Positions 75 through 5,279 of a DNA stretch of 32,928 nucleotides are shown one piece after another. Where the stretch lies: the UHGV virus genome UHGV-0143082. One strand, 5' to 3'. Under the pieces are notes generated by a model. That model saw only the letters and a list, made by a program, of their open reading frames with translations, was not told where the DNA came from and made no database searches. Positions within the stretch are counted from its first letter, which is position 1; every line of letters starts with the position of its first letter. Origin of the DNA: a virus. Made by a program: the position numbers and the translations under genes.

Positions 75-3023
75 TTAGTGCTTCCCTTCTATTAAGTCTA
101 ACCTAGCTTTTATTCTTTCTATTTCTCTGCGCTGCCATGCCGCCTCGATATAGAATAAGAGATCAGGTCTGACCCCCCATCTAGATCCTGCTGGCGTTAT
201 TTCAACGCGCTCAATGATGTCTTCCATTACCATCACTGGATTATCATCCTCATCAACAATGATGCTCCCGTCATTATCAGTCAGCGGTATTTCCCTTTGG
301 CCAGTAATGACGTCATCATATACTGCGGGATAATCGTCATAGCAAAGAAAGGCATAGCGGCATGTTGTGCTTTCTTCTTCCATGAGTCCGTGAGAAATAA
401 GAACATCACGAAGTTGCTGCGCGATTACACCATGATGTATCCTCGCCCCTTCTTCCCCCTTTATAGCGACAGCGTTCAGCCATTTATAAGCGATATACCT
501 GACGTCACCCCAGGCATCCAGCAATGCTTCGTCAGGAGAGACCGCCTCTGTCTTTAATGTTCCGTCACTGGTAACCACAGGATTGGAGCCAAGATAAACT
601 GTCGAGAACCTGTTTCCCGGACCACCAAGAGCATTTACATTATCAAGATAAGGTTTAACATCTCCGTTCTCAAAAAGATGTTCGAGTGCGTTATATACCG
701 CGCGACGTGGAGTACTGCTTCCGGAACCATGCAACGTTATCATTGCGCCATCTGCTGAAGACGTTGTTTCACCGCCGCTAACGATTAATCTCTGAGCGGT
801 AACATCATCAGACGGTACTTTCTTCGCAATAATGGCGTAATTACCCTCAAGTTTGACTTCCGCGCGAACTTGTCCTGATGTACCTGCATGGACAGTCAGT
901 GACTGGACGGCAACATCATCTGTGAAATCAACGGGTACAGGAACCGTCCTCACGCCTGACGTCGACATAAAAGTAGGAAGCGTTCTGTTAGGAGTGGCTC
1001 CGTAGACAAAATCCCTTGAAACAAATTCTTCCTGTTTAATTTTCACCCTGAAACAATACAAATCAGCCGGGTGACCATCGTGAACATAAGGATATTTTCT
1101 GTTGTTATCCCCTATGCTCCATGGGTTTAGAAAGTCTTCCCCACCGAAAATGTAGTACAGCCAGTTGTCTTTGATACAAACTGAACCAACACCAACCGCA
1201 GAGTTAACTATTCCGCCCTGATAAATCTGATCAGTAACATTAACCCACTCTACATTATCCAGACTCCACTCATTGACGTTAACTCTGGTCATAAATGTTC
1301 TTGGATAATTTCCTGCATAACGGTTATCAGGTTCTCCTCCTTCCCACTCACCAAATGCGCGCTCACTGCCAAAAATAATCAGCTCATCGCCAACTTTGGC
1401 AAAAGGAAGGTTTGAGTGATGAACATTATTTGGGAAGCGAAGAGAATTCCATGATGTACCTAAATCAGAGCTTCTGTGCAATGAACTACCGGGTTGAGTA
1501 CTTAATGTCCCCCTGGTCGTCAGATACAGAATGCCATCATAATATTTTACACATGGCTCAGATGCATTCGCCTCATATTCTGCAGGTATGCGTCTGCGAA
1601 CAAAGCTACCAGGAGAACCGAAAGCATCAGAGAAATAGAGTATCCCAAGCTCGCGTGGACCAATATCACCATTATGGTAGCCAACAGCAAAACTGTTATC
1701 GCTAATCGTCGCAAAACTGTGAATCTCAGTAACAGGAGTGCTTCCGTCAACAAAAGAAGAAATAGTTCCAAGACTGGTTTTTCTCCATGGTGACGAGTGA
1801 AATGATGTACCAAAACTCCAGTATCTACCCTCGTTATTCTGATCCACATCCTGAGTATTTTGCGTCGTAACTGTAAAAGTATTTTTATCAATAACAGTAG
1901 TCACCGTCATATTCCCGGTAACACCTGTAACACCAGAGTTTGAGAAGTTGACAAAATCACCAGCAAATAATCCGTGATCAGTAATGCGAATATAAGCGAC
2001 TTGCTGATTTGCTGCTTTCGTTATACCACCATAAACGCGAAGGCTGCGACTCATTGGACGATCCCACAACTCTGCAACCTGCAGTTTATTTCCGCGCACG
2101 GTCCGCGTCTCAATTACAGCAAAAAGGCGATTTCTGACAACCCCCATACTCATGCAGTGATAGTTAACTGTGGGATAGTTTTCATGTAAATCTGTAAGCC
2201 ATTCCGGCGTTGTCCAGGTCTTCCCGTCATCTCCTGAGCGAACCCATGCAACATGGAGGTTATTTACACCATGGCGGTCTCCAGCCATAAAAGGCGCATA
2301 GATGACATTGTCATATACAAACGTTTTATCCTGCGTCCAGGCGTTGTACCACGGTGTATCTGTAATTTTAAATAACTCTCCTTGGATAAAATCTTCAGAA
2401 GCATAAAAAAGAGGCTGACCCGGTATTCTCTCAAATAAAAAACGAGCATTTTTAAATCGACTGACATCTGGAAGAGTTGATACTTTAAAAGTAAGCCCTC
2501 GCCCATCTATCTTTTCACCACCTGTTGCAACAGAAAGTAATTCTGATAGAGCTGATGTATCATCATGAACACCATCACCAATAGCCCCCCAACCTCTTAC
2601 ATCATAACTGTCTCTCCATCTTGCTATCTGAAGTTTTGGGTATTTATTCGCTCCATCTGGGTCTTCTAATTGCTGTCGTAACTGATCAGGATCATACTTC
2701 AGCACATTCGGAAAATAGAACTGCTGCACACCGTACGCATCATAAACAGCCATAGAATGGCCCTGTACAGTAACGAATTTGGCAATCTGTCCGTTATATA
2801 CCGGATATCCAGCAGCGTTAATGATGATTGGTTGCGATACAGGAACGTGAGAGCCGTCTTCGTTCTCCACATAAACCTGAATCTGGTTTTCAGGATTTAC
2901 AGGGTCAGTGTCAATTTTACCGATATAAATTTTACCATTGGCTACGGCTTTAAAAGAACGAGCCATAGTGAAGAGTTGCGAAGGCATACTCACTACAACA
3001 TTGGCATTTATTGAATCTGTCAT
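75..3023 (-). CDS. Tailspike protein: P22 gp9-like head-binding N-terminal domain fused to endosialidase-like body with C-terminal intramolecular chaperone domain
   Basis: 982 aa; N-terminal ~115 aa closely resemble P22 tailspike ([45 protein letters not shown]); two Asp-box motifs SGDDGKTW and SSDLGTSW; C-terminal region resembles the self-cleaving chaperone of endosialidases. Confidence 0.8.
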
Positions 3024-3081
3024 TTAATTTGCTCCAGATGCAAGGAATCGCCGCAGCATGGCTACGGTGAATTTTGGGCAT

Positions 3082-3104
3082 AAAAAAACCCAGCCGAAGC
3101 TGGG
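3082..3104 (-). terminator. Rho-independent terminator downstream of ant
   Basis: GC stem cccagc/gctggg with cgaa loop followed by a T7 run on the minus strand. Confidence 0.5.
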
Positions 3105-3123
3105 TCGTTGCGTTGGTTATCTG

Positions 3124-4059
3124 TCAGTAGTTATGTACTGAAGGAGGTAATTCTTTATTCTTAAGTCTCATCCATGCGGAAAGATTCGTTGGTCCGTCTG
3201 GCTCATTAATATCAACATCTCGTGTGTGGTTTATTAAAACGTCTCTCGCCATTCCGATAACATACGAGAACTCATGACCGTAGTCGTAGCATCTGCCGGA
3301 ATAGTTCGATTGAATTTGTTTTAATGCCGGATACAGTTCGCGGAATAATGCCTGTGAACGGTTGGCATAATCCCATAGCCATACAAGGCTGTTTGCTTCT
3401 TTTGCAGAAAGCTCGTTGACTTTCCTCTCTTGTTTGCCGATGAACTCTCCTTCAAGCGGAACGCGAGCTGCAAGTGACAGTGCTTCGGTAAACTGCTCCT
3501 CACTAATTTCTTTGTACGAACATCCAAAATGGGATTTCAGTGACGACCACATGGTGATCATCGCCTTAGCCTGTTTTTCTTTTGGCAGAGACTGACCGCG
3601 ACTCATGACGAGTTGTTTAATGGCTTCCTGCTGTTCAGTGGTGATTTTACCCTGCAACGCCTTTTTAGCTTTGCGTGGGTTAACTACATGGCCTTTAGTC
3701 CAGTAGTCATGCAGCACGCTAAAGCATTCCTCCTGGTACTGAATCAGTTTATCACGGATGTCAGCACGAACTTTCTCAGGGTTGATGCTGAACAGCCATC
3801 CATTTAACTTCTTCAAAGGAAGGCAGAGTAGCTTACGAAGCTTCCCATCAGCGGCAACCATGTTCATATGAACACAGTTGAATTTGCTAATCTGCTTCAT
3901 GAGTTTTGTTTGCTGCGTTGACCAGCTCATTCCAAGGTTTTCAACGATTGGCTTCATCGCAACATATGCAACTCCGGCAGCCATGGCGGTGATAATTTGC
4001 TGACCGTTGAATGGTACGTAAGAGGTGTTCACTGCTTCTAAAATTGCTATACTATTCAT
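3124..4059 (-). CDS. ant: Antirepressor Ant
   Basis: N-terminus [21 protein letters not shown] resembles P22 Ant; sits between arc and tailspike as in P22 immI. ORF-track start at 4089 is a TTG; the ATG at 4059 with upstream GGAGA is preferred. Confidence 0.75.
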
Positions 4060-4130
4060 GTTGGTTTTTCTCCAAGGATTTACCGACAACCGAAGCCCTG
4101 ACTGTTACCGCAGTTGGGGCTTCAACTTTT
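4060..4130 (+). ncRNA. Candidate sar-like antisense RNA covering the ant ribosome-binding site
   Basis: Extended -10 TGcTATACT at 4045-4053 on +; predicted start about 4060; hairpin 4092-4123 (gaagccc/gggcttc) followed by U-rich tract; arrangement mirrors P22 sar. Confidence 0.3.
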
Positions 4131-4346
4131 CACTTCTTTAAAGTGCCTACCTTCTACAGTTGCTCTGAGATAAAAATTCTTATCTTTACCGTTTAGTGCT
4201 TCCCAAGCATCAACAATGCACTTATTACAGATGTGGACTTCTCGATAACCAATAGCTTTCCTGTCAATATTAGTGAACATAACAGCTTCTTTATCTGTCA
4301 ATGTGGATGCATGACAGAAGTCGCAATCTATATAAGATACCTTCAT
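4122..4346 (-). CDS. Small zinc-ribbon-like protein of unknown function (two CxxC pairs)
   Basis: 74 aa; CDFC and CNKC motifs; ATG overlaps the arc stop (ATGA), suggesting translational coupling; not present between arc and ant in P22 as I recall. Confidence 0.5.
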   Translation of the reverse strand: MKVSYIDCDFCHASTLTDKEAVMFTNIDRKAIGYREVHICNKCIVDAWEALNGKDKNFYLRATVEGRHFKEVKS

Positions 4347-4501
4347 ACCGTTATCCCCTCTCTCTTCAGGCTGTCCAACACTCGCTTGTAAATCTCAGAG
4401 TTAACAGATCGCCCGTTCTCTTCAGCTACCTTGCGCACCAAATCCAATACTTCTTTAGGCCACCGCAAATTGAACTGAGGCATTTTTCTTGCACCTTGCA
4501 T
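4343..4501 (-). CDS. arc: Arc repressor (ribbon-helix-helix)
   Basis: Hand translation gives MQGARKMPQFNLRWPKEVLDLVRKVAEENGRSVNSEIYKRVLDSLKREGITV, near-identical in core to P22 Arc; below the 60-aa cutoff so absent from the ORF track; an upstream in-frame ATG at 4522 is an alternative start. Confidence 0.8.
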   Translation of the reverse strand: MQGARKMPQFNLRWPKEVLDLVRKVAEENGRSVNSEIYKRVLDSLKREGITV

Positions 4502-4522
4502 ATTCAACTCCATTTCACTCAT

Positions 4523-4594
4523 TGATAGTACCGTACTACTATTGAAAGCGTACTACTACCGTTCTAGCATGTCAACAAATAAAAGGAGAACGAC
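4523..4594. promoter_or_regulatory. Divergent Pant/Pmnt promoter-operator region
   Basis: Pmnt candidate TTGAAA(4542-4547)-17-TAGCAT(4565-4570) on +; perfect TTGACA on minus at 4570-4575; palindrome TAGTAccgTACTA at 4526-4538 and direct repeats of CGTACTACTA at 4532-4541 and 4550-4559. Confidence 0.6.
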
Positions 4595-4837
4595 GTGGCT
4601 AGAAATGATCCACAATTCAACGTAAGAATGCCTGATGAGATAAAACAGCAACTTACGCATATTGCTGCAACAAATCGCCGCTCGATAAACGCAGAGATTA
4701 TTTCAGCTATCGAACTATGGATAAAAATTCATAAAGGGCAGCTAATACCTTCAAGTAGTCGAATCCTGACAAAGTCTGAGCAAGAGGCGTTTGATGTAGC
4801 TATTGATGTGTTAAAACGTGTAAGAGATGGAGGATAA
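4595..4837 (+). CDS. mnt: Mnt repressor (Arc/MetJ ribbon-helix-helix family)
   Basis: 80 aa; MARNDPQFNVRMP resembles P22 Mnt N-terminus (MARDDPHFNFRMP); GTG start preceded by AAGGAGA; divergent from arc as in P22. Confidence 0.75.
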   Translation: MARNDPQFNVRMPDEIKQQLTHIAATNRRSINAEIISAIELWIKIHKGQLIPSSSRILTKSEQEAFDVAIDVLKRVRDGG

Positions 4838-4839
4838 CC

Positions 4840-5073
4840 ATGGAGCAACAACAAGGGTCGCCATTATCATTGATTATTATGGTGATTTTTTTCGTTTTTA
4901 TCTTTTTTATACCTGCGTTAAAAATATCCAAAAAGGCCGGTTTTGACTGGAAGATGGCTGTATGTTTAACAATCCCTGGCTTTAACGTGGTGGCGTGGCT
5001 CGCGCTTGCGTTCATGGATTGGCCAATTCACAAGTATCTACCAAAAGATGTGAATCGTAAGGATGCAAAATGA
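4840..5073 (+). CDS. Small hydrophobic membrane protein, unknown function
   Basis: 77 aa with two predicted TM segments; start 2 nt after the mnt stop; stop overlaps next ATG. Confidence 0.5.
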   Translation: MEQQQGSPLSLIIMVIFFVFIFFIPALKISKKAGFDWKMAVCLTIPGFNVVAWLALAFMDWPIHKYLPKDVNRKDAK

Positions 5074-5279
5074 ATAAAAAACAGCTTATTAAGTCAAAAA
5101 CGTCAAGCAAGGAAGAATTAGAGAAGGAGCTAAACTCCCTGAAATATGCTCTGTGTCTGGTTTACTCAAGACTGCCAATGGAAGATAAAAACGCCATTTA
5201 CAATGAAATGATTAGCAGCCTTGATTTTAACGATAGAGACCTAGCATCCCACCTCAACAGCTTCCGCGTCCCTGAGTAA
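5070..5279 (+). CDS. Hypothetical protein
   Basis: 69 aa; ATGA overlap with upstream ORF; AAGGA upstream; followed by the bidirectional terminator. Confidence 0.4.
   Translation: MNKKQLIKSKTSSKEELEKELNSLKYALCLVYSRLPMEDKNAIYNEMISSLDFNDRDLASHLNSFRVPE

Follow-up and report, generated by a model that had tools for sequence, protein, structure and literature searches.

An additional gene between arc and ant

Our analysis concerns a 74-codon open reading frame (ORF), referred to here as gene X, that lies between the arc and ant genes in the immI region of UHGV virus genome UHGV-0143082. The whole stretch analysed, called the window below, comprises 32,928 nucleotides (nt), and all its coordinates count from its first letter. 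Judged by its sequence, the window is a P22-like Escherichia coli prophage, whose late genes, arc, ant and tailspike gene are all on the minus strand. Gene X occupies positions 4122-4346 of that strand and encodes a protein of 74 amino acids (aa; MKVSYIDCDFCHASTLTDKEAVMFTNIDRKAIGYREVHICNKCIVDAWEALNGKDKNFYLRATVEGRHFKEVKS). This protein is identical to WP_000868958.1, annotated as 'hypothetical protein', and contains two cysteine pairs, CDFC (residues 8-11) and CNKC (residues 40-43). The ATG of gene X (4346-4344) shares bases with the TGA of arc (4345-4343) in a 4-nt ATGA overlap, and a Shine-Dalgarno-like hexamer, GAGGGG (4355-4360, minus strand), can be read within the final arc codons (..K R E G..), 8 nt 5' of this ATG.

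The genes and control elements around gene X are those expected of a P22-type immI region. The arc gene itself (4343-4522, minus strand) encodes the Arc repressor (Pfam Arc, E=2.6e-26; the identical locus is so annotated in RefSeq); its longest ORF has 59 aa and begins at an upstream ATG, while the RefSeq start lies seven codons later, at 4501, and yields a protein of 52 aa beginning MQGARKMPQF. The sar antisense RNA (4060-4127, plus strand) is matched over its full length by Rfam RF00262 (97.4 bits, with a gathering score of 43; E=4e-21) and is complementary to the intercistronic region between gene X and ant and to the ant ribosome-binding site. At its 3' end it shares 6 nt with gene X, namely the terminal Ser codon and the stop codon, and its terminator hairpin (4092-4123; GAAGCCCTGACTG-TTAC-CGCAGTTGGGGCTTC in the structure line of the Rfam match) is adjoined by the gene X TGA (4124-4122) and forms the left boundary of what we describe below as a cassette. 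The ant gene (3124-4059, minus strand, ATG at 4059) encodes an antirepressor of 311 aa (Pfam P22_AR_N, 1.5e-45; P22_AR_C, 9e-29). Divergent from arc lies a gene for an mnt-like repressor of the Arc family (4595-4837, plus strand; Pfam Arc, 1.8e-12), and the interval between the two (4523-4594) is assigned as the divergent Pant/Pmnt control region by its position and by analogy with the annotated P22 and epsilon34 records. The only promoter-like site that the promoter scan gave in this interval is on the plus strand (4542-4570) and fits Pmnt. The scan gave no minus-strand promoter-like site within or just upstream of gene X, whose expression should therefore follow Pant and be coupled to that of arc. 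On the Pant transcript it would precede the part targeted by sar.

An earlier note on this DNA had given arc and ant as adjacent in P22 and had described, between them in the window, an extra 74-aa zinc-ribbon ORF with CDFC and CNKC motifs and an ATG overlapping the arc stop. This description is borne out throughout, and the strand, which had been left unstated, is minus. In the P22 immI record X01916 and in epsilon34, the gap between arc and ant consists of the 68-nt sar region with no gene in it; alignment with these two phages identifies the ORF as an extra gene inside the Pant operon, and the ATGA overlap and CxxC pairs support a protein of the zinc-ribbon type coupled to arc. All of the parts of the P22 and epsilon34 immI regions (mnt, Pmnt/Pant, arc, sar and ant) are present in the same arrangement, including the divergent mnt and arc genes of the Arc/ribbon-helix-helix type, and sar and the ant ribosome-binding region are nearly identical. 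However, whereas arc directly precedes the sar-complementary region and ant in P22 and epsilon34, with nothing between arc and the sar hairpin, the window has 225 nt encoding gene X there.

Gene X is conserved as a protein-coding gene

A search of 5.8 billion proteins returned seven clusters of gene X homologues with 81-99% identity, and an exhaustive phmmer search of 1.84 billion representatives gave a family of five clusters only, including members with 55%, 47% and 44% identity. Full-length members always have 74 aa (74 codons). Seventeen columns are invariant in eight sequences down to 44% identity, including C8, C11, C40 and C43 as well as S4, Y5, D9, F10, S14, T15, N26, I39, I44, R67, F69 and K73. 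Conservation of the cysteines had been set by the earlier note as a test of its proposal, and all four have been kept. The ratio of nonsynonymous to synonymous substitution rates (dN/dS, Nei-Gojobori) is 0.12-0.24 for non-saturated pairs (dS 0.15-0.85) and 0.40 for the closest pair, values that show clear purifying selection on the protein sequence. Across 21 loci of E. coli, Citrobacter, Salmonella and metagenomic origin, both the start context (GAGGGG, N7-8, [A/G]TGA) and the stop context (TGAAGCCCC) are kept, with the gene X TGA beside the sar hairpin throughout. The database entries for the Salmonella copies (L009-L011, 3935-4159 on the plus strand of Salmonella enterica assemblies) are only 52 aa long because gene callers missed a GTG start that overlaps the arc stop (GTGA). 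We considered that these copies might lack the first CxxC and rejected the idea, since the upstream 22 codons, including CDFC, are intact and the true start is the GTG. Gene X is thus almost certainly a real gene that is translationally coupled to arc.

The distribution of gene X was followed in complete E. coli genomes and in sampled contigs. Of 5,426 complete E. coli genomes, 23 carry it, always with ≥99% identity, as WP_000868958.1. It had no match by tblastn in 50,697 deposited phage records and was found only in prophages and IMG/VR contigs; a pattern scan of GTDB representative genomes was also empty, with a pattern that began at the start Met and with species representatives that probably lack the prophage. 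Every homologue with readable surroundings lies between an Arc-family gene and an antirepressor gene of a P22-like prophage, a placement that holds in E. coli, Citrobacter, Salmonella and the metagenomic members with 44-55% identity, and the wider neighbourhood includes genes for gp16-type and injection proteins to one side and, to the other, for a head-binding tailspike. No member of the family was seen outside of the arc-ant slot among the 1.84 billion representative proteins. The G+C content of gene X is 36%, that of the window 47%.

The interval between arc and the sar hairpin is an exchange slot

A six-way alignment of the window, P22, epsilon34, one Salmonella copy and two E. coli prophages showed that the ant start, Psar, sar and its hairpin are conserved in all six loci, with the hairpin unchanged, and that the extra DNA is placed exactly between the sar hairpin and the last arc codons. 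In the same alignment, P22 arc ends 6 nt before the TGA at the same position. Some E. coli prophages match the window locus exactly in Arc (WP_001161119.1), Mnt (WP_000113456.1) and the next gene (WP_000437781.1) and have an unrelated 73-aa ORF instead of gene X; other E. coli prophages have an unrelated 57-aa ORF or a 60-aa ORF in the slot, which is empty in P22, epsilon34 and many E. coli prophages. In each cassette type the start codon falls on the arc stop and the final TGA lies at the sar hairpin. Among the 5,426 complete E. coli genomes, the 57-aa ORF is found in 93, the 73-aa ORF in 51, the 74-aa gene X in 23 and the 60-aa ORF in 10. The 73-aa and 57-aa proteins belong to PHROGs with no function assigned, and the 73-aa ORF also lies beside arc in phages vB_SemP_Emek and vB_EcoP-611R6.

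The precise swapping of at least four small ORFs, from start to stop codon, points to an accessory cassette rather than to a core part of the Mnt/Arc/sar/Ant switch, and we conclude that gene X is very probably an exchangeable accessory cassette. The Arc C-terminus reads ..KREG[ITV]xV in all cassette-bearing phages (..KREGITV in the window) and ..KKEGRIGA in P22, a difference that is explained by the last arc codons supplying the ribosome-binding site and start of the cassette. Like a moron, gene X is present or absent among similar phages and has an atypical G+C content; it shows no promoter-like site of its own, and its stop codon adjoins the pre-existing sar hairpin in place of a terminator of its own. 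Lacking individual promoters, the slot ORFs differ from classical morons. Neither the slot nor any gene between arc and ant turned up in our literature searches.

The gene X protein resembles ClpX's zinc-binding domain

The protein encoded by gene X is probably a diverged, free-standing homologue of the ClpX-type C4 zinc-binding domain (ZBD). C8, C11, C40 and C43 follow the ClpX-type pattern CxxC...CxxC and would be expected to bind zinc, and zf-C4_ClpX is the sole Pfam family matched by all eight members, each at E of about 1e-3 and below threshold. In a pairwise hhalign comparison, whose E values carry no database correction, the gene X family profile matched residues 1-60 of E. coli ClpX (confirmed in PDB 1OVX) with a probability of 93% and a score of 37. 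As controls, seven other C4 zinc ribbons remained below 3%, and 60 shuffled ClpX ZBD sequences with fixed Cys scored 12.9 +/- 2.7 (maximum 19.9), with probabilities of at most 14.5%. The similarity thus extends beyond the Cys pattern and is specific to the ClpX ZBD. The two have in common the pattern (Y/L)xC(D/S)FCxxS ... RKxxxGxxx(H/Y)ICxxC(I/V), followed by a helix that in gene X is predicted. In contrast to ClpX, the 74-aa gene X protein is free-standing and lacks an AAA+ module; ten additional residues lie between its Cys pairs, and a conserved stretch of 20 residues (..FYLRxxxEGRxFKExK) extends its C-terminus.

The ClpX ZBD docks adaptors (SspB, RssB) and substrates such as lambda O via a hydrophobic patch with F16 and I46 among its residues, and degradation of lambda O requires this domain (PMC7804408). 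The equivalent of F16 in gene X, Phe10, is invariant. Three observations weigh against a ClpX-like identity and docking role: the individual match of gene X to zf-C4_ClpX (PF06689) reaches 18.9 bits (E=0.0015), below the 27-bit cut-off, and covers profile positions 22-37 only; the Cys pairs are separated by 28 residues, outside the usual 18-19 (18 in ClpX and 19 in the 60-aa slot protein); and the I46 equivalent is Ala or Ser and is not conserved.

Structural modelling gave consistent but weak support for a likeness to the ClpX ZBD. An AlphaFold model built with seven close homologues had a predicted local distance difference test (pLDDT) value of 40 and was not used; when the ZBD of the 60-aa slot protein was added to the shallow alignment, the pLDDT rose to 69.5, with a predicted helix (residues 41-50) after the second CxxC. 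The top three hits of this model in a Foldseek search of 350,542 PDB chains were ClpX ZBD crystal structures (2DS5, 2DS6), at target-normalised template-modelling (TM) scores of 0.64-0.68 and non-significant E values (≥0.66), from a model that relied on one true ZBD in its alignment. A PDB sequence profile search with the alignment restricted to gene X homologues returned only T-cell-receptor alpha chains (E ≥0.003), over a Cys-free stretch, which we judged to be due to chance. Gene X received no assignment in PHROGs (E<=0.01), NCBIfam or PADLOC. The ClpX-type zinc finger is a known kind of protein, of which gene X probably represents a branch unassigned by Pfam, NCBIfam and PHROGs and found only in the arc-ant slot.

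The 60-aa occupant of the slot is, unambiguously, a ClpX-type zinc finger. This protein (WP_047668240.1; L027, 2573-2755, in E. coli P22-like prophages; MNKEDGFKCSFCGKPQHECAMLIRAKAEIFICSGCVSLCVEAMGKELNSRKTMLDVNIKQ) is named 'ClpX C4-type zinc finger protein' in RefSeq, passes PF06689 with 42 bits (cut-off 27) and matches the gene X profile with a probability of 89% (hhalign). Its rare gene has the same 4-nt overlap with arc as gene X and likewise stops at the sar hairpin, 63 nt before ant, but the protein is a canonical ZBD with normal Cys spacing and no C-terminal extension, and shares only about 24-28% identity with gene X. Two of the four cassette types are thus ClpX-ZBD-like.

Free-standing domains of this type are rare in phages: only 23 of the 50,697 records matched, true clpX genes included. 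Small ORFs matching the ClpX ZBD occur in P88, PhiR44_2, Cr30 and phage G (PHROGs 5259, 6797 and 12435), none of them annotated with a characterised function. In the P2-like phages P88 (L031) and PhiR44_2 (L032), a 110-aa protein with a ClpX-ZBD-like segment (2824-3156, plus strand, in both) is encoded at the variable end of the early operon, after replication and ParM-like genes, and is mis-annotated as a 'carboxylate--amine ligase' in P88. Phage proteins with such segments may form a broader uncharacterised class. Our literature searches yielded no description of free-standing ClpX zinc fingers in phages; they brought up S. aureus CxaR, which is unrelated. A second Clp-related gene occurs in the region in E. 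coli ZJ3920 (NZ_CP020545.1; L028, 2758-3294, plus strand), where the end of mnt shares one base with a gene for a 178-aa ClpP-like protease (PF00574, E=2e-11), which is followed by a YafO toxin gene; the arc-ant slot of this prophage holds the 57-aa cassette. This gene could bear on a ClpXP connection.

A possible early effector directed at ClpXP

In P22, Mnt represses Pant in lysogens, and after injection Pant fires briefly until Arc accumulates. Gene X is in the Pant operon and should thus be made together with Arc and Ant in this brief post-injection burst. Its expression would accordingly be repressed by Mnt in lysogens, occur early upon infection and then be shut off by Arc. Late transcripts are described by Villafane et al. 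(2008, PMC2629481) as reading through the immI region to the tailspike gene, and gene X is probably also present on such transcripts. In the newly infected cell, the gene X protein may act as a mimic of the ClpX N-domain. Two routes are conceivable, in which it titrates the adaptors or substrates that bind the ZBD or pairs with the ZBD of ClpX itself, and either would change the choice of substrate or adaptor by ClpXP. The phage might benefit by having a replication or regulatory protein shielded from ClpXP, or by blocking a ClpXP-dependent response of the host or of a resident prophage, such as antitoxin turnover or an abortive system.

Taken as a whole, the reading that gene X is a real gene of the Pant operon, sits there as an exchangeable cassette and encodes a ClpX N-domain mimic that alters ClpXP activity is the one we favour, albeit with a reserve that stops us just short of calling it probable. 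Its last element, a function directed at ClpXP, seems to us possible but doubtful. It is still more tentative, and in our view rather unlikely, that the two ZBD mimics of the slot, the canonical 60-aa protein and the 74-aa gene X product, together define a new 'domain decoy' class of early effectors that reprogramme or blind ClpXP. No link between ClpXP and P22 Ant was found described in our literature searches.

Alternative explanations

The alternative that fares best is that gene X encodes an early accessory protein, acting in anti-defence, anti-exclusion or host takeover, whose target is not ClpXP and whose zinc finger is a mere scaffold. The slot is indeed an exchange site for four unrelated or barely related small ORFs without assigned function, the low G+C content of gene X would suit such a role, and so would the lack of conservation at the I46 equivalent of the ClpX patch. 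Anti-CRISPR/aca operons combine a strong promoter with an autorepressor and fire at injection, and the Pant operon resembles them in these respects; the mnt side of the region, moreover, abounds in genes for defence and toxin-antitoxin functions (PIN, YafO, Panacea, Rap1a, SieA, ClpP-like). On the other hand, half of the cassette types are ClpX-ZBD-like in spite of the rarity of such domains in phages, which suggests that the ZBD character itself is selected in the slot. Gene X also has no match in PADLOC or PHROGs, and it has never been found outside P22-like immI regions, which would be unusual for a generic counter-defence gene. We consider this explanation, too, possible but doubtful.

It is appreciably less probable that gene X is a dedicated component of immI, one that serves Ant as partner, chaperone or inhibitor or that regulates the expression of ant or arc. 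The earlier note had proposed a new regulator or an Ant partner, and this part of it found no support. The attraction of the idea is that all homologues, down to 44% identity, are coupled to arc on one side and stop at the sar hairpin before an antirepressor gene on the other, that the family has no other context among the representative proteins searched, and that co-translation with Ant would fix the stoichiometry of the two. However, the gene X type does not follow the type of either neighbour. Copies 82-99% identical pair with three antirepressor architectures: the window and L024 have P22_AR_N+P22_AR_C, L009 and L021 have KilA-N+P22_AR_C, and L020, with a 99%-identical gene X, has a Bro-N protein. 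Copies of gene X that are 81-84% identical to that of the window adjoin Arc proteins only 42-46% identical, while a 54%-identical copy adjoins an 88%-identical Arc. Co-variation with Ant or Arc type, as the signal of a partner, was considered and rejected, as there was none across the loci compared. Beside identical Arc and Mnt proteins, gene X is replaced by an unrelated ORF or the slot is empty, and P22, epsilon34 and many prophages have no gene there at all. All of the known regulatory parts (mnt, arc, sar and the ant ribosome-binding region) are present, intact and P22-like without any contribution from gene X, whose product has a net charge of about +1 (residue count) and no DNA-binding motif detected in a Pfam search.

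A role of the slot ORFs in cis, in which translation from the arc stop to the hairpin sets mRNA structure, spacing or ribosome traffic, thereby tuning sar pairing and ant translation, and any ORF would suffice, might account for the fact that all four cassette types keep both junctions and that 6 nt separate the end of P22 arc from the TGA at the hairpin. Recombination at the conserved flanks explains the kept junctions equally well, and the low dN/dS of gene X and its invariant Cys, Phe, Ser-Thr and C-terminal Arg/Phe/Lys positions make such a role very improbable. Finally, the comparative data effectively refute the reading of gene X as an unexpressed chance ORF or annotation artefact, which its lack of a family assignment and the different start called in Salmonella might suggest, since the 52-aa calls are explained by the GTG start, with the 22 upstream codons and their CDFC intact, and frame, length and Cys are kept with a dN/dS far under 1.

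Other features of the window and of related loci

In the sar region, positions 4064-4135 (plus strand) also have a sub-threshold Rfam match to the plasmid ctRNA_pGA1 family (28.7 bits vs 45), which most likely reflects the stem-loop and terminator architecture shared by antisense RNAs rather than homology. Directly 3' of mnt lies an ORF for a 77-aa hydrophobic protein (4840-5073, plus strand; phrog_32536, function unassigned), whose stop is overlapped by the start of an ORF for a 69-aa protein (5070-5279, plus strand; phrog_16466, function unassigned); in the lysogen, both probably share a transcript with mnt. Among prophages, the mnt side of the region varies, with genes for PIN domain, Rap1a, SieA-like, Panacea domain and P63C domain proteins; such genes, of the defence, exclusion or toxin-antitoxin type, are found at 2347-3461 in L004, 2750-3491 in L005, 2546-3160 in L007 and 2283-3150 in L030. 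Both sides of immI, the one expressed in the lysogen and the one expressed upon infection, may be arms-race loci.

The tailspike gene of the window (75-3023, minus strand) encodes the P22 head-binding domain together with a complete K1 endosialidase set (End_N_terminal, End_beta_propel at 771 bits, End_beta_barrel and End_tail_spike) and a Peptidase_S74 chaperone. The combination of head-binding and K1 endosialidase domains identifies the window as a K1-capsule-specific, CUS-3-like prophage of the P22 type. CUS-3, as described in PMC2629481, has no arc, whereas the window prophage does.

Significance and comparison with known systems

The P22 immI region serves as a classic model for gene regulation, and our analysis shows that it holds a precise exchange slot between arc and the sar hairpin, which in E. 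coli prophages is occupied by at least four different small genes, two of which appear to copy a docking domain of the host ClpX. Should these proteins interfere with ClpXP, a major bacterial protease would be seen to have a simple, naturally occurring inhibitor or adaptor of the domain-decoy type, and an unrecognised role of ClpXP would emerge, either in the first minutes after a temperate phage infects or where prophages compete. ClpXP would then be tied to the outcome of superinfection, for example through stabilisation of Ant or of a replication protein, or through prevention of toxin-antitoxin or abortive responses of resident prophages that are triggered by ClpXP. Regardless of ClpXP, the slot is a compact place in which to seek early phage effectors, since it is flanked by an Arc-family gene and an RNA that Rfam can detect. 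The immI module itself is classical, and the gene between arc and sar is what departs from it; of interest are the cassette slot in the Pant operon, its two ClpX-like occupants and the testable idea of a link between ClpXP and early infection by P22-like phages.

The region has been recognised before as a place of gene exchange. The 'ant moron' of P22-like phages was described as a region of high gene flux, with ten types in sixteen genomes (Villafane et al., 2008; PMC2629481). The flux described in the retrieved passages of that paper concerns whole genes around mnt, arc and ant, and these passages make no mention of an intra-operon slot between arc and sar; the arc-ant slot is a further point of exchange in the same region.

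The closest parallels to the function proposed for gene X come from other phages in which a small early protein alters host proteolysis to the benefit of the phage. T4 PinA and T7 Gp4.5 act against Lon, and lambda RexB acts against the ClpP-dependent degradation of lambda O. Gene X would follow the same logic, but it has no known sequence relationship to any of these three proteins, and, whereas none of them is known to be a mimic of a protease domain, the gene X product may exert its effect by resembling the docking domain of ClpX itself.

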